Below are positions 15,201 through 62,475 of a stretch of DNA of 64,000 nucleotides, one piece after another. A model generated the notes under the pieces. The model saw nothing but the letters and a program-made list of their open reading frames with translations, made no database searches and was not told the DNA's origin. The DNA is from Yuukianura sp. NJ FZ-2021 (lineage: Eukaryota), in the NCBI GenBank assembly GCA_046563655.1, contig CM102289.1:4278001-4342000 (forward strand), in the 5' to 3' direction. Position 1 is the stretch's first letter. Each line of letters starts with the position of its first letter. The translations under genes and the position numbers were made by a program.

Positions 15201-18200
15201 CACCGGGAGCAGTCATCGTCGAAGTCGGCGCCAGTGGACTACTACGCGGGCTAATTCAAAAAGGAACCCAAGACGCCACTGTCATTCCCCTGCAAGCCAG
15301 AAATACTGACTGTGTCACTTCCCTTCTAACTGCCCTCGGGCGTCTCTTTGTGGCGGGAATTAACTTTGATTTGAACAAGTTGACGAATCAGGAGCCTCGG
15401 TTACCGTTGCCAGGCAACACGCCCCTTCTGGGCCACTTAGTCGACTGGGATCACTCCCAGGCTTGGAACGTGCCGATGTATGGACAGGAAGTTGGGGACG
15501 GATCGAGCAAGTACGACTTTTGTTTGGCGCGAAAAGAGGATGAGTATTTGTCTGGTCACATGATTGCTGGGAGAGTTTTGTTTCCTGCCGGGGCGTATAT
15601 TTACTTGGCATGGAAGCATTTCGCAGCGTCAATGCAGTTGGACACAGAAGATGCCCCGGTTGTCTTGGAAGATGTCAAGTTTCTGCGTGCCACTGTCATC
15701 CGGTCATCCGGTAAGAAATTCTGGTCAAAATTTTGGCGGGAATTCATCAAATTGCTGATCTTGCTGAATTAGAGCCTGATAGTTCTATGGTTAGAGCTCT
15801 TCCGGGATTAGTCAGATGCGGGTTCGAATCCAACTTGGTTCTATATTTTTTCTGCACAATCATTCTTTGCTTCTCAAGACTTGTGGGCCCTGAACCTTAC
15901 AGAATTTAAAGTTCATGAGAGATTTTGTAAAAGTCAAGGTTTGGAGGGAATACATGCAATTTTTTGCGTTGCAGATACGACGGAATTTCACGTGAGCATT
16001 TTGCCGGGAAGTGGAGCTTTTGAAATTCGCGAAGGAAACACAGCTGTTTGTATCGGAAAAATTCGAACGCCCGGGAACGCCATGCATGAAGAAAAAACAC
16101 AGGAACATCGATGGCGCGAAATTGAAACTTCTGGTTTGAGTTCACTCAAAAATTTTGAAGAAACGCAAACATCTGATGACATTTACAAACGACTTCGTTT
16201 TCTCGGCTACGAATACTCCGGAGAATTCAAAGCAATTCAAAAAGTTGACCCGTCTGGAACAAATTTTCTGCTTGGTTTCAAATCCAATTGGGTCAGTTTC
16301 ATTGACACTATGCTGCAAACGACATTTCGGATTTATGGCGCCAAGGGCTACCCAACTGACTTGTCCGTTCCAACCGAAGTTTCCAAAATTTTGATTCAGC
16401 CCGGGAAATTGCGGGAACACATCGTCATGGACACGGGATCTGCACAGGTCTTTGTCAACTATGACCCGTTGACCCATATTATCAAATGTGACGGAGTTGA
16501 AGTCGAGGGGCTCAAAATGACCAAGTTGTCACATAGTGTCCATGACGAGTTCCCTACTGTGATTTCTCATCATGGATTTGATCCGTATATGTACGAATCT
16601 GGAGAACAGTGGAAAAATGATCGCTTTTCGCATGTCCTGCTCTGTGCAGCCATCGTCATGGAAAACTTCGGAACGACGCAGCGGCGTGGACAGCAACCAA
16701 CAATTTTCGAATTTTGTACCAAAGTGCAACGGTGTGAAACCGTCCAAATGGCAAACTTGATCCGCTCTGACTTTAACACGCCAGAAGTAAGTTAACGCGG
16801 TAACTTTTACAAAAAAAAAACACCAAATCCACTCGAAGATGAGTTTTTGAACATGTTCTCAGCTTATCCCAAGCGCCGGTACAAAATCTATGAAACAATG
16901 TAGTTAGTAAACTAATTTTTAATTATAAACGCTATTAATTGTTGCTGCAACTATTATTTCTTGTTTTTATACCAGTGCTTGGGGTAAGTTGAGACAATGT
17001 TCAATAATCTCTTTATCGAGTGGCGTATATGTAGCAGCTTAGCAGCTAAACAACACAAGAATACACTCGAAAGTGTGTTTTTAAAGTCGCAGAGCTTACG
17101 CCAAACCAGCACAAAATCTAGAAATAAGAAGTTGTAACAGCTAGCTTATACCTAGAAAGAATATTTTTGATTTATAAATATTTTTCATAGTTGCTACCGC
17201 TATTGTCACTAGATTTTGTGCTGGAGTTCAAGGTCACTTTTAAAAAAAAATATTTAATTTTTGTTTAGATTGACTACACCCTCTGCGCGGACTTGCTAAG
17301 CGAAGGGATTAAAAAATCTTTGGCACAGAGCAACGTGAAATTTATTCACCCAGGAGAAATCGCAAGTCTGTGGGATTACATTCAGAAGAGGTACGATCTG
17401 ATCGTAATTGACGAAATGATTCTCATCCGAAAAGTTATTTCGGGCTTGAGAAAAGGCGGGTTTTTGATTTTGAAATCTGTCCGCGGAACTATCACTCGGG
17501 AAGAACTTGAACAACGAATAGAATCAGATGACGCCAAGTACCACATCATTGCCCATAAAATCTCATTTGACTATGACATTTTTCTCATTAGAAGAGTAAG
17601 TCACTACAAATATCCAAAACTGAAAGTTACAAACAATTTGAAACTTTAATGAAACTAAAAGAAATTTTTTGGGGGAGGAAAATCTGTTTCCTCCTTTTTC
17701 AATTTTCTTCTAGTTACGGTAATAAGAATAGGCTATTAAAAGCCTACTTTAGTTGAAAGTTTGTTCAAAATTTAAAAAATACTAAATTCAAAATTTTTAG
17801 GATACAAAGAAAAAGTGCAAAGACATCGAAGTCATTTCTATCGACAGTTCAACTACTTGGGTGGACAAATTGTCGAAAACGATGATTCGGTACGAGCAAC
17901 TTGTCGAAGCCGACGTGCCGCTTCCCCGGCTGTACTTGGTGTCTACTGGAAAAGACGCCGTAGACTCTGGAGTGCTTGGACTCACTTTGTGTCTGCGCAA
18001 AGAACCGTTTACGCACTCCGTTCGTTGCATCTACAGCGCAGATCCAATGGAACTAAACTTCGACCAACCCAGTGCACTTTTGCAAGAAATTTTGGACAAA
18101 GACATGGTTTTTAACATGATTGACCAATCGGGAAGACTCGGCTGTTTGATCCACTCTGTAATTAGCACAAAAGATGCAACTGCGACTACTTCTTCGGCGT

Positions 18201-49946: not shown

Positions 49947-52900
49947 ATGTTATCAAATGGGGATGGATCCGTTGTACACGAAGCTGGATACCGTCATGTT
50001 GTTGAATTTCCAATTTCACACAAAGAATCACATGCTAACAACGTCGGAGTCGGAGAAATTTCGAAATGGGCAAGAGAGGCCGTGGAGCTTATGGGATCTG
50101 GAGAGTTCGATAGGGCGCTCTACTATATGAATCTATGCTTAGACGATCGAGACAAAATGTTTCCCGAGAGAATTCTCCGCGACAGGCCATTGGATTCCGC
50201 TGGCGAGAAATACAAATTGTCAGAAAGTGATGAGCTGATTCTCTTGGAGAAGCGCTGCTTAGTCCATATGCGGCTGAAGATGTACGAGAACGTATTGCAA
50301 GGAGCGGCACTTATCATCTCCAAACGACCGAACCATGGTAGAGCGTTCAAGTATATCTTGACGGCTTTATGCAAAACTAATAAGGTAAGGAGCTTTAATT
50401 TAAGTACCTTATCGATCGCAGTTTTAATAATAGTCGAACTCGGTTTATGTGTATATCGAAAAGAGAAACTGTTATCCTTCGGGATTTTGATGTTGGAATT
50501 GTAGAAATTATAGAATGTCATGAACGATTGTAAAAGCCGCCTTAGTCGCGGTCGCGGTTTAATTTTAGCGTAAGAACTATTCCAGAACATAAGGATCATG
50601 TGGCAGGAGACGGCGAATGATATGATCCGTTCGTGCTAGAGCCAAGTTAGAGCTAAATTGAGTAATTTTTATATAATCCCATTTGAGTCACTACCTATTT
50701 TATTTTAGTTTGGGAATGTCGCGGATGCTTTGAGTTTATGGAAGAAATGTGCTCCAAATGACATAGAAATGATTGAAGCCAGAACAACTATGGAAAGCTG
50801 CAGCGACGCCGTCAAGAATGGCGTTGAGCCTTCCGATGTTTACTCAAACATTGAGGAAACTTTGGGCCTTGGGGTGGACAGGAAGACTGAGCCAAAAATA
50901 TACGAGCCTCAGTGGAAATATCGCCCTGTACCGTCTGGCAATACGGCATTCGTGCTTTGTCTGCAATACCGCTTTGGTCACTGCTCACTGGGCGAGAAAT
51001 GTCCAGATGCCCACGGCGGAGAAGAACTCGAAGAATGGAAAGTTCGGTATTCCATATTGTGCGTATAAGCAACCACTTATAGCTAGGAATGTAAATTAAC
51101 CTTATTTTCAGAAATTAATCAGTAATTACTATTCTCCAAGGAATCTTACCACAATGCTTGGTAGTCAACTGGACCGGGAGGCGGCTTATGTAAAAAGCAT
51201 TCTGGATAAGCTTGACAGTGTGCACGATCAAAGGGAGGTCATTGCGGATGAAATTCCGGGAGTGATTTTAAGGTCAGTTCGGTGTCTGAGTTTTAATTAC
51301 TCTGTCGTAAAAATTAGTAAGGCTAGCACTCAAAATTAGCATAATTAAACTAAGATAATGAATGATCAACCATTTTGAATAGTTGCTCCGAACCTTCACG
51401 GAAACAATTTCATTCGACTACAGTGAGATGCCACACTTGGAATTTTGCAATTCGTTCAACTCGGCTTTTGAAAAGCGTTTGCCTTCTATTCGACCATCAT
51501 AGACCTTACTTCAAAATACACTCCGCCGTGTGTTTAGGGAATTCAAGTTCGTTGAATTTAATAACTGGAGAAGCGGCTTCAAACTCTTCGGTGAGATTTG
51601 ATCATATTTGATTTTATGTATTATAGTTGTAATTGTGTTTTTTTTCCAGTTGCAACTGCTTGAAATTTCTCTGTCTCCGGCCGCTCCACATGCCACAAGT
51701 TCCAGCTCAGGTGTACATAGTTATGCCATTGAAGTCGCTTGCACCCCAGACGTGTTCGGGACATTTAGGCAAACCGTAGTATTTGACTTCGAACTCGACG
51801 GAGTTCCTAAGCTAAAGAAGGATATATCGATAGAAGTAGTACCTCCAACGGAAGAGGTTTGTAGAGATGAACCTCCCGCTCCGCCAATCCAAGCGTCAAT
51901 CGTCCCTGGGAAAAAGGATTCTCCGTTCGCCAGTAATTTACAGACCAAAGGAACCTGGAACTTTGGCAACGCCGATATCGTTGATTCCGTTACCGGAAAG
52001 AGAGTGGACTCGGCAAAGATCGGCTTTGCCCTCATGTCTTCCGCGGGTGTGAGGAATCCTTGTGTGGCAGGAAATGACAAGCAGTCTCCCTATTTACTGA
52101 CTAAGGAAACATACAGAGACCAAATGCGTATGAAAAACGAAGTGTTTAATTTAATCAAGCTAACAAACAAGGTTTATGAAGAAAATATTTGTTTTCTCAG
52201 GTTCGTTCTTGACGGAGGAAGAGAGATGCCGACAGGTCATCCTGTCAAAATACAATATATCCGCCCATCTTGCAATTTCTGATAACATCGTCGTGACTGC
52301 AGGGGCAAGTGAAGGAACGCGTTACAGCATTGACGGTAACCTTTTCGCCCGCATGACTCTTTTTCGGTAATTTTGATTCGGTATTATAGTATTTCTTTAC
52401 AATATGTTATCTGTGCGCTCGCAACTCACCCAAGCACGAAGCGCAACTATTGTAGAATCGGTATTCCAAACTCAAGTCCTCACACCATTTCAGTTTTCAC
52501 GTTATTCGATTCTGTATTTTTATAAATATTTTCAGTGACATTTGTGAAGACACTCCCGTCGGTCGGCTTATTCTCCGCAACTGTAACTCGGTTCTGCTAG
52601 CTAAAACTCTAAATCTCTGCCAGACTGATGTTCCCGACCCCAAACCCAGGGTGTACTTGTGTCCAATCGTTGAGAAGACGAAGAATTCCATGTTCTTTGA
52701 AATTGGGAATGCCTGCGTCAAGGAGCTAAACCTTTCAGTTTCAGAAGTGTCTTCATTTGACATTCAGTTTCAACTTGATCGAACAACGTTTCTGGAGCAG
52801 AAAAAAGTCATAGATCAGCTTACAGATTTGCACCTCGACATGCTTTTTCCAGATTTCGTCAAAGATTTCCAGATACCGTGGAATCCATTTCTGTGAGTGT

Positions 52901-55900
52901 AAACAACGCTTTGAATTGTTTCCGGTTAACCACTTACTTAGGTTAGTTCTGGACGAAAGAACAATTTATATAATGAAACTTATCTATTTAAGGCAATGGA
53001 ACTCATCAGTTGAATCAAAATTTGTCCGCCTAAATCCAAAGCAAAAAGAAGCCTTCAACGCTGTCACAGTTAAAACAACTCGAACACCGCCCATCTTGAT
53101 AATTGGTAAGGAAAGGCTTATGATTGGGGGCATGATTTGATTATTGTTGGGAAGCAGTCGTTACGTTGACATTGCAGTTACACAATTGTAGCCAGTGATT
53201 TTATTTGTGCAGGACCTTTTGGAACTGGGAAAACCTTCACTTTGTTTCAGTGCATCAAGAAGTTACTTCTTAGCGACGATGACTGCAGAATCATGATATG
53301 TACGCACTCAAACAGCGCAGCAGATTTGTAAGCAACCAATAAATAACTTATATCATTAGAATTATAACTTTGTAATCGTATCAACATTTTTAGATACATC
53401 AAGGAGTACCTTCATCCCATGGTCAAAGAGGGATGCGAAAAAGCTAGACCGCTGCGTATTTACTATTCCCTCAGAAGCAAGCTTACCGTGCAGAACGAAA
53501 TTCGCCCGTATTGTTTATACGACGATATGGACCGCTTTAGATGTCCCACGAAAGAAGAAGTTTTGAAGCATCGTGTAATCGTTGTCACCCTCAGTACCTC
53601 GTTTATGCTAATCGACTTGCAACTACCTTCAGGTTTGTTAAAAATAAAATTCTATTGCAGTGTGAGCATGGTCACACATGATGGTAAGAGTATCTGGATA
53701 GTTACCCTGTTATAGCTGAAGTAACGTATATGTGATCATGTTTTTTTTAGATACATTCACCCACATCCTGCTGGATGAAGCAGCACAAGCAATGGAAAGT
53801 GAGGCTATAACACCACTTCTGGCTGCTGGTGAAAATACCAAAATAGTTCTGGCGGGCGATCACATGCAGGTTAGCCTTTCAATATCAATATCAATATCAG
53901 TATAACAGTTCTCTTTTCGATAAGTTGAGGTAATTTTAATGATTGAAAACTGATTTTCTCATTTTGAATTTAGCTCAGCCCCGAATTATTTTCTGGAGAT
54001 GGGAATCATTTTCATTTGTCGCTTTTGGAACGCCTGCATTGCCTTTATCCCGATAGTCACCCATGCAAACTAATGCTGTGCGAAAACTACAGGTCACACT
54101 CCAGCATTATAAAGGTTACAACTTATATACTTATTGTAAACTTTTCTATGAAGAAATATGAAAGGATGAAAACCCATTGATTACGTTTGATAAAACTTTC
54201 CTTCTAGTTTGCCTCAGATTCATTCTACCAAAGGAAGTTGGAATGCGGAATGAATCAACCTGTTCATGAGAAGTATTACCCACTAACATTTTTTGCCGCC
54301 AGAGGTGAAGACGTGCAAGATCCAGACAGCACATCTTATTACAACATGGCAGAGGTACATATAAGTGACAGTACACGTATTTTGAATCCAAGCGTCACCC
54401 GGAAGGATTTGAATGCCCATCAAATATGGAACATCTATAAATGATAGCAAAGAAAACAGTTTATAAAGTAGTCATTACACAAATTAAGACTAAAAACTGT
54501 CCTCATTTTAGGTATTCGAAGTAACTGAGCGTGTCAGCGACCTAATTGACACTTGGCCTGAAAAATGGGGAAATTGGAAGAAAGATAATCAAATTGGGGT
54601 TCTTACGCCATATCCGGATCAGGTTAATCGTATCCGACAGCGATTACGAACGAAGGGCCTGTATTCTGTATCTGTGGAACGAGTCTTGAATGTTCAAGGT
54701 GAGTGCAACCCGCCCGCGAAGCTATACTGGCTTTTTTAAATACATCTTTAACGAAAATCATGTTTTTAGGAAAGCAATTCCGAGCGGTATTTCTTAGTAC
54801 CGTGAGGACACACAAACCCTGGCTCCGAGTCTTGCCGGAAACTGTCTCCGGGGAAGTTGATTTGGGATTCTTCTCGAATCCAAAATTACTCAATACGGCA
54901 TTGACACGAGCCCAGAGCTTGGTAGCAGTTGTGGGAGATCCAGTTTCTTTGTGTGCCCTGGGAAAATGCAGGTAGCATAGTTGTCGCATTTGCAGAATGT
55001 TTACAAAGATATACGCTTACTACTAGCTTTTTACGTCGTGGGAAAGGTTTGTCATTTTTCACTGTTTTATTAGGCGACTCTGGGAGGATTTTATAGGCAT
55101 TTGTGAAGAAAATGGATCACTGCATGGGATGACATTGAGTCAAATCAAGCTGAATATCCGCGGTGTTGAAATGAGACTTAAGTGGGGACTAAATCCAATG
55201 GTATGCTTTTGCAAAGTTTAAAATATTTGACAAATTAATAAGTTGCTTAGTGATTTGTGTGTGTTTTGTGTTCAAGGCAAAAGAATTTGAAGTGAATGAT
55301 TCTCAACCAGTAACAATGGAACCCCTTACATTATCAACCACTTCGATTTCGAATACGACAATGAAACCTGTACCGCCTGAATCGCCCAGCATCCATTTAG
55401 GTTCAAGGTCTGATAAAAATGAAGTCTCGCAAACATCCGAATCCGCTGTCACAGCGTTTAGCAGCGTACCAAATCCTTGGCAGAATATCAAAACGTCACA
55501 AAATTTCTCCGCAAACATTGCGCAATGCCCCGTTTCGAGTGAAATGACGGGAACAGGGCCAATGGTAATTTCTATATTTCTTCAAACAGTTAAAAATTTT
55601 GTTGGAGATTCTGAATTCGGGAATGAAACTATTTTTGCTACCGTTTGGTTTAAAATTGGGTCTAAACTTCAAATGTTGCCTAAATTAAATTGCTTTGTAT
55701 TTTTCAGATGCCAATGGCAGGGAATCAAGGACCGGTACCCACGTTCATGTCTGGACCACGTCCATTTCCCTCGCCGTCCTCCCAGGCATACCCGATTCAA
55801 GTTATGCCACGAGCATCTATTGGATATCCACCAATGGGGCAAGGGTATATTGCAGTTCCGATTCATTCTCGGCCACCTTCGGCGTTCGCTCAATATCGAG

Positions 55901-57285
55901 CGCCACATCAGCCTCCACGACTTGCGGTGGCTGTTCCAAATTTTCCAATAGCTCCCACACGCTTGGGCTATCCCACAATGCTGCCGCGTCATACTATTAT
56001 GCCTCTTCCGATGGCACCCATTACCGATGGAAACCTCCAGCCTCATATGATTCGCCACTTCGACAATAATCCTTGGGGACAACAATATGCACACGGATAT
56101 AACTTCCCTGGACCGTCACAACAGTATATGCCAATGGCAATGTCATCTGATCAAAGACAAGGCAATTTCGTTCCTTTGTCACACCCGTCGAAATTTTACG
56201 TGCCCCAGCCACCAATGCAGCAAAGCAGCTTCACGCAAGACCCCAGATTCGCTACTTGGATGCCTAATCCACGCCCAATGACGCACATAACAGGAAGTAG
56301 TGGTCCTGCTCAAAATGAAAAGTTGTTACCGGAAGAAATACTCCTTTTGCAACGACTTCTGGATGAGCAAAAGAAATCCTCTACAGCACCCGATGCAGCA
56401 ATTGAGTCCATCAAGGGGAAGTTAGCCCATGCGGTAAGTGGTGGAAATGGGGAGTATCCTTTCGGTCATTCCGTTGTAAACCATCATTCGGCTAACTTAA
56501 ATAAGGATCAGCCCTCCGGTTTGAATTTAAATAACCAAATTGCTGCTGTTGCTCTGAATACCTTGGGTGGATCTTCTTTGTCCCGTCCAAATAATAGCGT
56601 GGGAGCTTCTCTTAACACGGCATTTAACCCGCATGGTGGTGATGGATTAGCGCAAGCTCAAATACCTAATGGGCTCAGCTACAACACCATGGCAACCAAT
56701 AAGTATACATCGTTTCCTCTTCCCTACCCCCCTGGATACAATTACGGGGCAATGGAAGCTTCAGACCTTGGAATGAATGCGGCAAATGGACATGGTTATA
56801 AGAGTCTTGTCCGACCAGTCTCCACTGTTAATGCCAATGGTGACCAGGCCCAGCGAAATAACCCACTATTTTTCAAAATTGAGGGGCCAACTAATGCAGA
56901 ATTATCGATGGAATGGTTGAAAACAAACAGTGATTCAGTTCCTACTAACAATCATAACTATACCAATGCAAATACTGGTTCTACCGGAAATTATAGCTCA
57001 ACCTCTGCTACGGGTCGTAGTTATGCCAATGCAGTTAAACAACCTCTAACGCAGACAAATTCTTGCTCGCCACTACTTACAACGGAAGGTGCTGAACCAG
57101 ATCCCCAACAGTTAAAACAGTTGAAAACTACTTCATCAGTTCAACCCAAGCCACTTATGGAAATGAACGTAGACTTCTTCCCACCAATTCACTCATCATC
57201 ACCGCAACGCACTCGTGGAAGTAGTACTCCGCCACCCAGATTCCGTACGGCCAATACAGCGAAGAAAAGCAAAAAGAAAAAGTAA
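49947..57285 (+). CDS. HELZ: Helicase with zinc finger (SF1/UPF1-like), multi-exon
   Basis: TPR-like N-terminus; CCCH finger [27 protein letters not shown]; Walker [51 protein letters not shown]2-like LNPM/AKEF spans an intron. Long P/Q/N-rich tail. Confidence 0.93.
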
Positions 57286-58024
57286 AAAAAAAAAAGGAGA
57301 AGACTGAACAACATTTGTTCTGTTATTAATTAATTTTCTGTTATATGTGTCTAATTTGGCAAAGTCTTCATATTTTTCACCCGTAAGTGTGTAAATGTTT
57401 CACTTTTCAGTACACTACATGCACCCAACTTTAATGTATTGGACTTTTTACTATATTTGGAGCCTTTCACATTATAATCGTTACAGTAATTTGACGCTAA
57501 TTGGAATTTGTTTCTGAACTGACTTTAATTTGCAATCGTCATGTTTAGGCTACTGTAGTATTTGGTTAATTTAAAGTCTAAAGTGTTAACGTGCTTATCG
57601 ATTAGGTAGCTTTTAAATATTTTTCTAAACTCGGCAACGACAGCCATTCTTTAAAATTTATCTCTCGTAAAGTAAATTTAAGCAAAAGTTATATGTCACA
57701 TTGGCCTCATTTATACGAGTTTATCGACCAAATTCGGAAAACTAAGTAATTCCTTAGCTTATCTATTTTATAATGTACGATTTAAATGTTATATTTTACA
57801 ATGTCTTATTTTATTGTTTTATTTTTACGATCCATATTGTCGTTGTTGTGACTTATGAGTATAAACCTAGCTATTTACTTTCCATGGGGAAAATTTAGCT
57901 TGTGTATTTGCAGTAATATTTACAGTAGATTGCACGTTACTGCGCATCGACGCTCTAAATATTTAAAGTTAGTAATACTCCGTACGGCTCATACTGGAAC
58001 AAGATCATGTTATTGAACAAAGGC

Positions 58025-58270
58025 GTTTAGGTTAATGTTAGGTGTGTATGAGACGTCTGTCTAGCTTACATAACATAAAGTGTAGTTCATGTAAAATGAA
58101 TTTTGAGGATGATTGTTTAAGTCAATGAATAATCAATCCCTTGTGTAAGGTTTTTTCTGCCTTTTGAAAATGGGTTTTTTCCTTACACTTTAACATGTCA
58201 TCGTTAAAGGCGAATGCTGAGGGACATAGAGATACAATTATGATGTTATCGGTTAAGTCAATATTGCTAA
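58025..58270 (+). repeat. Copy 1 of ~245-bp direct duplication containing an ENE-like U-rich internal-loop hairpin (58143-58188)
   Basis: Near-identical to 58508-58750. Contains GTGTAAGG-TTTTTT-CTG-CC...GGG-TTTTTT-CCTTACAC. Confidence 0.9.
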
Positions 58271-58304
58271 CTAGGCCATCCTTGGCGCCGCCTATCGGCG
58301 GCGC
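58271..58304 (-). mobile_element. Helitron-type 3' terminus between the duplicated units
   Basis: On the minus strand GCGCCGCC-GATA-GGCGGCGC, a 10-nt spacer, then CTAG ending at 58271, followed by T. The equivalent position in copy 2 is an empty A|T site. 5' end not resolved. Confidence 0.6.
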
Positions 58305-58507
58305 TCGAACTAATAGGATAACAATTGCAGCTAATCTTATGGTGGCCCCAGAGTTCCAAAGGTTTAAAATGGTTCGTCATTTTGTTATTCAAATACCATT
58401 TTAATTGCGTTTCTACGTTAATTTCAATTGCATTGGTATTTTTATTCTCGTTTCACATGCAATTGTATTTTGAATACAATTAAATCATGTTTTCATTTAA
58501 CTGTTAA

Positions 58508-58750
58508 GTTTAGGTTAATGTTGGGTGTGTATGAGACGTCTGTCTAGCTTACGATACATAAGTGTAGTTCATGTAAAATGCATTTTAAGGATGATCAAGG
58601 TCAAGAAATAATCAATCCCTTGTGTAAGGTTTTTTCAGCCTTTTGGAAAATAGGTTTTTTCCTTACACTTTAACATGTCATCGTTAAAAGCGAATGCTGA
58701 GGGACATAGAGATACAATTATGATGTTATCGGTTAAGTCAGTATTGCTAA
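58508..58750 (+). repeat. Copy 2 of ~245-bp direct duplication containing an ENE-like hairpin (58622-58668)
   Basis: GTGTAAGG-TTTTTT-CAG-CC...AGG-TTTTTT-CCTTACAC. AATAAA follows at 58807-58812. Confidence 0.9.
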
Positions 58751-59049
58751 TATTAACTTTGCACTCATTGGTATTCCTGTTCAACATATTCTCATAACAG
58801 CAGCCTAATAAAGAAACTAGACTGAAACAAGCCATTTGAAACTTCAGTGTAACCTGGTGCAGTATTTTTTCGCAACAGTTTAAGCATTATATTTTTGTCT
58901 GCAGTCAGCAGTCATCAGTAACACGAGGTTTAAACATTAGAGTCGGATTTCAAATATGGTTGATTGTGAATTGTGATTAACATTATTGGTGATTTGTGAT
59001 TTTATGCCGTGAAAATCTCCCTGATAACAGCATGCTTAAGGTGATTTAA

Positions 59050-59748
59050 TTAGGATTGAATATCTTTTTGGAGCACATTTTGAATCACCAGAATTATACA
59101 TCCAGGGGCCGCTAAAATTGTTTAAAAATGCAACAATTTTCTTAAAACGTTGGTCCTTTTAGTTAATATGGTTTTAGCTACTCTCTTACCCAATGTTGCG
59201 AAAATTTCATATCGTTTTGAGGATATTCGAATCATTTCAAGGTGATTCGTAGGATCAACTTCCCGTATGGCGAGCAAACACTTTTTGTAAATTGAGCTCA
59301 TACGACTAACGTAGTATACGGTAGACGTTTGGTCAATTGTAGTTCGCAGGGGTATTCCTAAAAAGAGACAAGCTGAATTAAAATGTTGCAAGAACTTAAG
59401 CGTATAGAAGGAATATCCATCATGCTTTGCCACTCATCTACGTCGCATCAACTCAACCAGTATATAACTCAACCTAACCAACCTTCGTAGTTTTAAACCA
59501 ATTCATTGTAATTGTCGAACGTAATGTAAGCTTACAAATGCATTTACAAATTTGATTTATTAGATTTACTCACCATCTTCATCTGTTACAATCACCGCAA
59601 ACACTCCTGGGGAACAACTAATTCGACGAATTGCCTTGTCCAACGTTTCGAGCTGCTGCAAATAAAATAAAAATCGCGAAAAATTTCTGTGAACTTCTTG
59701 CATTTTGCTGATCATTGGTTATGCACCTTTGTAACAGTTCCTTACCAT
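59050..59748 (-). CDS. Divergent dynein light chain Roadblock/LC7 family protein, 104 aa (coding exons 59748-59746, 59655-59574, 59357-59190, 59111-59050)
   Basis: Spliced product MQLETLDKAIRRISCSPGVFAVIVTDEDGIPLRTTIDQTSTVYYVSRMSSIYKKCLLAIREVDPTNHLEMIRISSKRYEIFATLAAPGCIILVIQNVLQKDIQS follows the roadblock pattern (GV..IV...GIP..T, R..DP.N.L..IRI.SK..EI, LVIQN). Confidence 0.85.
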
Positions 59749-60346
59749 TGATTTGCAGTCCTTCAACGTTAACAATTTCTGGGTCTAAATGATATAGCAC
59801 TATCCGGTTACCTAATGTCGGTCACAAGCGTCTCGAAAATGCCCCTCCTCGTCCCCAACCTATTGCTCAAAAAGCTAAAGCGTCATCCTCTTTTTTGTGA
59901 ACCCACATACAGTACAACTGGTAATAAAATGAACGGAAACGGATGACTTCAGAAACTTTCACATGGTACGAGACGTAACCGCTTGAATACATGTCCTGAA
60001 AACCGAGGATTCTAATCTACTATATAGACTTCAAAAAACTTTTTAAACCATTGGACTTTACATAAGAGCCTCCAAGTGGAACGTTCCGTTCGTATTGATC
60101 GCTACAGAACAGACACCGCTTGGGTCAGACGAAATTATCGGAAGAAAGAAAGAATCGAAGCGTGTTCGAATCTTGGTATGATGATATGAAAGCAAAATGA
60201 AAATGGACTTAGCTCATTCTAAGTGCGACACTTCCTAATCGCCTTTGTAAAAGGTAAAAAAACGCTCATTCCAAATAGAACTATAATCAACCATTCATTT
60301 CAATTGTCCGGTGTTTGCTACGTCAAACACAGGCTCTTTAAGATAT

Positions 60347-62475
60347 TTAATTGGGTTTCTTTTGCTGTTTGCTGTAAATATCTGGGTCACTGAAGTATTC
60401 TTCTACATCGTCAGAAATTCCTTCGTTCGGTTTTGATGATGATAACTTTCTGTAAATTGTCATTGCCTGTAAAAGAATGCATATATTTTAATAGGACTGA
60501 CTTTCATTCTGTTGAAATGTTTTTTTTATAGCACTACCGTCAACGAAACGCTGGAACTGCTACCTAAGCGATCTTCAAATCGTGAATGATTTAATATTTA
60601 TTTACCTGTGCAACCATCCCAGGAACATTTGAGGCATCTGACGGTAGCATAATGGTATTCGACTGTTTAGCAAGCCCAGCGAAAGCCTTCACGTATTGCT
60701 CAGCAACTATAAAACTTGAGGCGTTCTTCCCGTCGTCCTTTCCTATGGAGTTCCCAATCATTTCAATTGATTTTGCTCGGGCCTCTGCTTTAGTCAGCAA
60801 AGCCTGTGCCTCTCCCAGTGCGAAGTTGATTTTCTCCTGTTTCTCAGCCTCTATTAAAATATAATGTCACAAACAGTTAAAAATTTTACAAACAGAAGCA
60901 CCTCATAATGAAGGTTCCTAGTCCCGGCAGAAAAAAAAATAATAAAACGCTTGATTTTACCAGAAGCGAGAATTCGGGATTTTTTCTGCCCTTCTGCAAC
61001 GTTGATGGCGGCCTCACGAATTCCTTCAGATTCTAAAATCTGCGCCCGCTTTTTCCGTTCAGCTTCAACTTGCATTTGCATAGCATCTTGAATACGACTG
61101 GGTAGCTTGATGTCACCTTAACGAGAAGAAATAAGACTGTTTAGTAATCAAACCATACTACAATCTACAATTGTTCCCTCTAGGGGTGACAAAGTTCCGC
61201 TTCGTTTCTCAATACAAACAGAAGAACTTTCTCACCCCTAGCTCCCACCACTAACTGTCGGAAACTTACGAATCTCGTAACGCATTGCCAGTAGTCCCCA
61301 TGCCTCACTAGCTTTATTGATGGATTCGACGATGCAAATGTTCAGATTCTCCCTTTCTCTAAATATTGTGTCCAGTGAAATTTTTCCAAGCTCGGATCTC
61401 ATTGTTGTTTGTGCCAACTGGGTAACCGCAAATTCTGGATCCTCAACGCCATAGCTTGCGTTATAGGGGTCAGTAATTCTTAGGTACAAAACACCGTCCA
61501 GGGCTAAGGCCACGTTATCTGAAACGACAAACACAATGTATCGTAAATATATTTCTTCATTTCATTTCATAGCACATTCTTTAAGCTTTCAAGTCGACAT
61601 GCTTTGGAACTTAAGAAGTGCATGCGTGCAAACCAAATCCGCATGGGTTTGGAACGAAGAAGATAGTTAGGGAAACCAGCATGACCGACAGTGAAACAAA
61701 GTTTCCATTACATTTACCCGGAATGTGTATTAGTTTCATGCATAGCCATATACACACAAACGTTGTTTCAGTCAATTAAATGAACAATGTTTGTACTCTA
61801 TCTACTTTCATTCTCCATTGGAATAATTAGATGCCTTCCCGTTATACTCACAGGATTATGGTAAGTCGATTGAATTAAACTATAAATGTATAACCTTTTG
61901 TAATAGCAGTCTGTTGAGGGATGTCGATAGCAATTTCTTTGAGACTATTCACATACTTTACTTTATCAATAAATGGAACGAGGAAGTTGAGGCCTGGAGC
62001 CAAAATTCTGTGGAACTTCCCCATCCGTTCGATTGTCCATGCCTATTATAATCAACAATAGAACAAACTGTGTCATTAAACAAAATTGAAGGTATAGATC
62101 AGATTCAGATTGAGTAACAAATCATCTGATGAAGTAGAAGCTTATGTTTAGTACTAATTGATTGAGTAAATACCTCCTGTTGTGGAACAAATAACATTAC
62201 TGTGTTCAATGGCGTTGATGTGGACTTGGTCCGCAATGGAACAGCAAAAGACAGTCCAGACTTAAGGAATAACTACAACAGCAAAATAGTAACGATTTAA
62301 GTTGGGTAATTTTTGCCAATAGCGAATGAAACTAACAACCTTATAATTAATTCTTTTCTTATTTTCTTCAATTTTGAAAGCAACGCATACATCCTAAAAG
62401 TACGTACTATTAAAGTTTATGTTTCACCTCATTTGTAGCAAAACCAGTGATTGACCTCAAAATCGGCATCGGCAT
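60347..62475 (-). CDS. STOML2: Stomatin-like protein 2, mitochondrial (SPFH/band 7), multi-exon
   Basis: NTVMLFVPQQEAWTIERMGKFHRIL, DGVLYLRITDPYNASYGVEDPEFAVTQLAQTTMRSELGK, MQMQVEAERKKRA, and VAEQYVKAF. Proposed first exon MPMPILRSITGFATNE resembles a transit peptide; the start is less certain than the rest. Confidence 0.93.

Follow-up and report, generated by a model that had tools for sequence, protein, structure and literature searches.

An ENE is defined as a U-rich internal loop adjoining G-C pairs that serve for A-minor contacts (PMC7583470). The hosts given there are viral lncRNAs, MALAT1 and MEN-beta, dicistrovirus genomes and transposons of plants, fungi, slime moulds and fish, and insect polydnaviruses are hosts as well (PMC4378190). 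In the dENE, two U-rich loops lie in one hairpin with a short duplex between them, and an end-binding pocket has been described (PMC13541005); the lower dENE domain carries a 3–4-nt bulge (PMC7583470). The ENE of the Evade transposon opposes CCR4a, and its loop-flanking G-C pairs are required (PMC12501189). MALAT1 has its 5' tract as the Hoogsteen strand and pairs the A strand with the tract preceding the bulge; following the A strand, one meets the A-minor contacts first (in part from PMC6633196). According to PMC13541005, ENE effects are most evident in RNAs that lack introns. Hosts named in the reviews consulted are viral and transposon RNAs and two vertebrate lncRNAs, with no ordinary spliced animal mRNA among them. 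At the level of titles and abstract openings, the literature that we searched mentions no ENE in an ordinary arthropod mRNA and none in a four-way junction, and primary surveys may list arthropod or inverted ENEs.

Here we examine a duplicated ENE-like hairpin in the genome of what is probably a springtail. It lies in a stretch of 64,000 nucleotides, called the window throughout, to which all coordinates without a contig or locus name refer. Judged from its sequence and modelled folds, it is quite possibly a single-domain ENE-type element with inverted strand order, situated in the 3' UTR of the HELZ mRNA some 140 nt upstream of a poly(A) signal; this is the reading that we favour, tentatively, and set against its alternatives below.

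The gene upstream of the hairpins is a multi-exon coding region on the plus strand (50061..57285). The original prediction called it HELZ (helicase with zinc finger), and three lines of evidence agree: an AAA_12 domain in one exon (E 5.6e-9), homologues named 'probable helicase with zinc finger domain', the best match being an Orchesella dallaii protein (84%), which points to a springtail as the probable host, and a tblastn comparison in which the Orchesella protein P0002 aligns to the window in 12 pieces over 50061-55203. The terminal frame (55684-57285) closes with TAA at 57283-57285, which is the end claimed earlier. Human and fly HELZ bind CCR4-NOT via the C-terminal region and PABP via a PAM2 motif (PMC6769256); a PAM2-like motif, LNPM|AKEF, is present here, split by an intron near 55190-55285 as read by eye from the tblastn alignment. 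The A12 run at 57284-57295 straddles the stop codon; it is an internal-priming hazard for oligo(dT) and, conceivably, an in-cis third strand. The putative HELZ 3' UTR (57286..58830, plus strand) is delimited by the first AATAAA at 58807, and nucleotide skew does not single it out, T exceeding A in all 200-nt bins from 57300 to 59299. Facing it on the minus strand is part of a roadblock/LC7 dynein light-chain-like gene (59050..59657; Robl_LC7, E 3.7e-5, and translations), whose stop, read by eye, is near 59050 and whose 3' UTR is directed towards the ENE-like element. The gap between its stop codon and that of HELZ is 1.76 kb. Further along, at the border of one exon of a minus-strand stomatin-like (band 7) gene, lies an 18-bp inverted repeat (61180-61241; 94% complementary, arms 26 nt apart).

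Alignment bears out the two near-identical units of about 245 bp that had been proposed between HELZ and roadblock. Copy 1 occupies 58025..58270 and copy 2 58508..58750 on the plus strand, the latter terminating at an empty A|T site (58750/58751); 20 of 247 columns differ, giving 92% identity (divergence about 7-8%). By DNA search and pattern search the unit has only these two matches in the 98.7-Mb genome, and its flanks (57290-58030 and 58750-59060) are single copy, a DNA search without a match being no proof of rarity. Both units open with a GU-rich stretch holding TTAGG (58027-58042 in the window; twice in copy 1), the arthropod telomere word, probably there by chance.

Each unit contains one ENE-like hairpin, and its anatomy is seen in the alignment and in the folds as it was first described. 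Hairpin 1 (58143..58188, plus strand) has an 8-bp Watson-Crick lower stem (58143-50/58181-88), U6 tracts at 58151-56 and 58175-80, a CUG bulge and a CCU/GGG upper helix. In hairpin 2 (58622..58668, plus strand) the corresponding parts are a lower stem at 58622-29/58661-68, likewise of 8 Watson-Crick pairs, U6 tracts at 58630-35 and 58655-60, a CAG bulge and a CCU/AGG helix; the 3-bp upper stem thus carries U-G in copy 1 and U-A in copy 2. Two G-C pairs adjoin the loop on each side, together with the 3-nt bulge, in both hairpins. In four folding contexts, one of them the whole of 57286-58830, the lower stem pairs with a probability of 0.64-0.99 and the upper stem with one of 0.81-0.92. The isolated 46/47-nt hairpins give z = -3.1 and -3.4; the whole units are not exceptional when folded (z -1.7 and +0.1). 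The lowest-energy fold of copy 2 allows its CAG bulge to take up two U from the right-hand tract, and with this modelled pairing copy 2 may be the weaker copy. The flanking hairpin GGAUGAU/AUCAAUCC noted earlier lies in the most-changed region and is rivalled by a longer helix. An Rfam search of 56000-62000 returned 5 matches at E<=10, all far below gathering and none on the hairpins.

Joint folding places the hairpin as one arm of a predicted four-way junction whose helices abut without unpaired linkers. In copy 1 (58137..58224, plus strand) the ENE arm is joined by P1 (58137-42/58219-24), P3 (58189-94/58203-08) and P4 (58209-11/58216-18); in copy 2 the domain spans 58616..58704 on the plus strand, and 0 of 200 shuffles were as stable. 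When the 88/89-nt domain of either copy is folded by itself, the junction comes out as the most stable structure (z -2.5 and -3.5). In unit-wide and wider folds P1 and P4 fall to near 0 in both copies, as does P3 in copy 2, where adding 60 nt of flank abolishes all three. Abutting helices occurred in 18 of 20,000 random genomic flanks, in 121 of 20,000 with 1 nt of slack and in 133 of 8,000 with 2 nt, which puts the chance of an abutting junction at P 0.0009-0.017 depending on the slack.

Comparison of the two copies, which are paralogues and the only two sequences available for it, shows 26 of 26 pairs kept, with two one-sided changes (G-U/A-U) and no two-sided ones. Since both paired-site substitutions exchange G-U and A-U, the plus (HELZ) strand is favoured; on the minus strand they become A-C mismatches. 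When the 18 events are placed at random, the junction domain escapes any structure-breaking change with a probability of 0.014 and the ENE alone with one of 0.10, and the test is anti-conservative because 13 of the 18 fall in 58025-58142, upstream of the hairpin; gene conversion could mimic the intact pairing. The U tracts and lower stem are invariant, as had been pointed out, but the invariance alone is not significant (P about 0.10). Taken together, we consider that the ENE-like fold is probably under selection.

The poor alignment of the unit flanks is real, but its cause is a transposon fragment lodged as a spacer, and not conservation of the unit alone. The fragment (58271..58500, minus strand), recognized from its matches in the genome (10, self included), is a truncated transposon made up of a Helitron-type 3' end and part of a palindromic repeat. 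It begins exactly where copy 1 ends: read on the minus strand, an 8-bp GC hairpin (58285-58304) is followed after 10 nt by CTAG (58271-74) and then by T. The A|CTAG start recurs in 6 of 6 aligned spacer copies, and the end motif has 11 exact pattern matches in the genome against 0 in the control. Helitron ends are characterized by a 3' hairpin, a CTAG end and insertion between A and T (PMC4344730). The spacer resembles a non-autonomous Helitron in its 3' hairpin, CTRR end, A|T insertion site and dispersed copies, and differs from one in that the 5' TC end is missing here, the copy being truncated at about 58500. Relative to its sibling L070 it is 89% identical over 230 bp and then breaks off. 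The palindromic repeat, about 360-430 bp long, is dispersed (58339-58500 in the window, L070, L071, L076 and L078); in L070 it is joined to the Helitron-type end, and in the window it is truncated.

The end of copy 2 is an empty A|T site equivalent to the place in copy 1 where the insertion occurred, and the borders of the units are breakpoints. Target sites are not duplicated by Helitrons, and the 245-bp duplication therefore needs a second, recombination-type step. In the simplest history the element would once have been single; a Helitron would have inserted just after the unit, and an allele carrying the insertion and one still empty would then have undergone non-homologous crossover or repair, leaving the order unit, Helitron fragment, unit. 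An 8-nt word, ATCATGTT, is shared by 58005-58018 and 58484-58500, a short way upstream of each breakpoint, and may have served as guiding microhomology in the duplication. An assembly artefact seems unlikely given the 7-8% divergence and the non-homologous junction. With the unit borders set by a Helitron-linked event, the presence of two ENE-like copies is accidental: the double ENE put forward in the original prediction is not supported as a designed device, the hairpins being separate and 479 nt apart. An LTR pair or TRIM is ruled out by the lack of TG..CA ends, the single locus and the Helitron-like spacer. A high-copy dispersed transposon fragment, which would have undercut the ENE reading, is ruled out by the two copies of the unit in the genome.

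The alternative that survives best takes the hairpin for a genuine ENE that is a relic of an old retrotransposon, a DNA transposon or the 3' end of an endogenised RNA virus, inert or drifting behind HELZ. Most of the more than 200 known ENEs are in transposon or viral RNAs, those of insect viruses included (PMC7583470; PMC4378190), and this locus has taken at least one transposon insertion. Against such an origin stand the single-locus status of the unit and both flanks, within the caveat on DNA searches given above, pairing that has stayed intact through about 7% divergence, and the outcome of our pattern searches, which found no related sequence in viral or metagenome contigs. Four scans of viral contigs gave 0, 18, 7 and 2 matches. 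The 18 were folded and none resembles the unit; of the 7, four were folded and only one, L130, is an ENE, which we take from its sequence and fold to be the KSHV PAN locus. Among metagenome contigs 46 pattern matches were folded; none resembles the unit, and a lower stem of 8 occurred in 0 of the 46. A two-sequence covariance model run on 22 sources (128 kb) recovered only its own two source copies. On this evidence we regard a relic as unlikely.

Somewhat less likely again is that the hairpin is a chance or mutational by-product, in which a GG-T6-C direct repeat and a short inverted repeat mimic an ENE and the duplication feigns conservation. Tandem GG-Tn-CC repeats yield such a core automatically (L082/L092, L068), duplication accounts for the identity of the copies without selection, loose classes are common, and with many genomes scanned rare chance events are to be expected. 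We gauged this with order-5 Markov sequence trained on this genome (runs of 1.41 Gb and 1.18 Gb), all descriptors having been picked after the element was seen. Weak cores with GG/CC on both stems arise 5.3 and 7.4 times per genome in this null, close to the 5 other matches that a similar pattern finds in the real genome, so the null reproduces the weak-core frequency. Nine or more pairs are reached 0.28 and 0.34 times per genome, and the strict class, which demands GG/CC on both stems and at least 11 pairs, is absent from 2.59 Gb of simulated sequence, a bound of 0.23 per genome. Short inverted repeats are 1.6 times commoner in real DNA than in the null (102 in 287 kb); extrapolating with this excess allowed for, the strict class with both G-C flanks is unlikely by chance, at about 0.05-0.1 per genome. 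Looser classes are expected 1.7 (G-C on one stem), 2.8 (8-bp stem, any flank) and about 110 (loose) times per genome. In the genome itself the core pattern matches these two sites only, with 0 control matches, and looser patterns match 7, 13 and 1 times against 13, 24 and 0 in controls. Apart from the strict-class null, a chance origin has to contend with the abutting junction (P 0.0009-0.017), with a strand and position that suit a 3' UTR and with G-U/A-U changes that are both compatible with pairing.

Two other hairpins of this general appearance came to light. One, at 17650-17720 of the window (plus strand), has a U6/U5 internal loop and an A-U-rich lower stem (z -3.5), lies in an intron of a fatty-acid-synthase-like gene (named by eye) and belongs to the loose class of about 110 per genome. 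The other, single copy at L085:1501-1542 on the minus strand (= G000:C7:7864428-7864469; z -4.6), has GG/CC on both stems, U7 and G-U5 tracts and a 9-bp upper stem. It is situated between PARP16/ARTD15-like and PAS-domain genes, apparently in a 5' intron or intergenic, with no obvious 3' end nearby.

The original prediction put the first canonical AATAAA after the HELZ stop about 140 nt past the second element; that position holds, the motif at 58807..58812 (a candidate distal poly(A) signal) being the only AATAAA on the plus strand in 57286-59100 and lying 139 nt past the copy 2 hairpin. Left out were an ATTAAA at 58479..58484 and weaker hexamers at 57671 and 57860. Sequence downstream of the AATAAA is only moderately U/GU-rich (T+G 0.5). 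The ATTAAA is within the transposon fragment, where sibling L070 has ATTCAA, and with the GU-rich start of copy 2 next to it is a possible proximal signal. The claim that no genomic A tract follows is confirmed by zero A5 tracts between 58190 and 59123.

These signals bear on a reading in which a functional ENE is carried by a separate plus-strand polyadenylated non-coding RNA, or a transcript with an internal start, between HELZ and roadblock. HELZ transcripts could stop short of the element at one of the weak hexamers (57671, 57860), and the known cellular ENEs of animals sit on lncRNAs (PMC7583470). The stop codons are only 1.76 kb apart, however, no canonical AATAAA precedes 58807, and ARAGORN and Rfam found no tRNA-like element or RNA family; we judge this improbable, slightly more so than a chance origin.

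Least likely of the readings that we weighed at length, and very doubtful, is a structured RNA with another job, for example an element of the HELZ UTR that binds a protein or localises the message, or else a fold on the minus (roadblock) strand: a four-way junction appears in no published ENE account that we examined, and a roadblock UTR could cross copy 2, the first minus-strand AATAAA past its stop being at 58446, but folding is less stable on the minus strand (-8.8 kcal/mol) than on the plus strand (-12.4 and -13.4 kcal/mol), the G-U pairs become A-C mismatches there, Rfam gives no match and the loop flanks match PAN. Other candidates were set aside briefly. A minus-strand coding exon is ruled out, with no Pfam match and a frame that ends early in copy 2; an H/ACA snoRNA because its ACA would be 18 nt away from the pocket and its guide would consist of A alone (our reading); a Pol III gene by the internal U6, which would terminate Pol III; and a telomerase template because TTAGG, although present twice at the unit start, is on the wrong strand.

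If the hairpin is an ENE-type element of the HELZ mRNA, the poly(A) tail would fold back into the U6/U6 loop, forming up to six U-A-U triples and shutting out deadenylases. With the strands swapped relative to PAN, the A-minor contacts would involve the apical CC/GG pairs, next to the 3-nt bulge; the tail would dock there, with its 3' end pointing down to the 8-bp basal helix and on to the four-way junction, a possible brace or cap for the tail end that recalls the dENE end-binding pocket. The outcome would be slower deadenylation of HELZ mRNA. This complete picture, an inverted PAN-type ENE in a four-way junction by which HELZ mRNA, itself encoding a helicase that recruits CCR4-NOT, clamps its own tail with the 3' end in the junction and resists deadenylation, is doubtful as a whole. 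An ENE would oppose deadenylation by any route, so nothing ties the element to the HELZ protein, and autoregulation of HELZ through it is speculation. Were the picture true, the poly(A) sites at 58479 and 58807 could yield one-ENE and two-ENE isoforms after the duplication. If an arthropod's own mRNA did carry a functional ENE, this would mean that hosts use a viral and transposon trick on their own messages, and the swapped strand order and basal junction would extend the known ENE design rules. If the hairpin is not an ENE, it would be a useful false-positive case for ENE searches.

Among described systems, MALAT1 shares with the element an AAGG/CCUU basal stem and a CCU/AGG upper stem (PMC6633196). 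Unlike the MALAT1/MEN-beta ENE+A, the element has no C/G interruptions in its U tracts, and the MALAT1-like downstream A-rich tract and tRNA-like element are absent here (no A5 in 58190-59123; 0 genes by ARAGORN); it is not MALAT1-like. Nor is it a dENE, its loops being in separate hairpins 479 nt apart. With the plant and fungal transposon ENEs and dENEs (TWIFB1, Evade) it has in common the U-rich loop, the flanking G-C pairs and a 3' UTR location, putative here; in contrast to them it forms no repeat family in the genome, and the Helitron fragment is beside the element, not around it. The differences from PAN are a strand order swapped relative to both PAN (L130) and MALAT1, with the bulge after the 5' tract and the bulge-side helix apical; an apical helix of 3 pairs as against 6 in the PAN A-minor stem; U6/U6 with a 3-nt bulge in place of U5/U5 with AU; a predicted four-way junction at the base; and a spliced cellular host gene (putative UTR) where PAN is a viral nuclear lncRNA. 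The ENE-like reading is upheld by the core itself, which matches the PAN ENE, frames its loop with G-C pairs at either end and is on the HELZ sense strand. The PAN locus reads GG-U5-CCUU ... AAGG-U5-AU-CC, 95 nt before AATAAA, and the springtail element AAGG-U6-C(U/A)G-CC ... GG-U6-CCUU, 139 nt before AATAAA. Both thus have a pure-U internal loop between helices, flanked by GG-Un-CCUU and AAGG-Un-bulge-CC, and both lie about 100-140 nt 5' of an AATAAA without a downstream genomic A tract.
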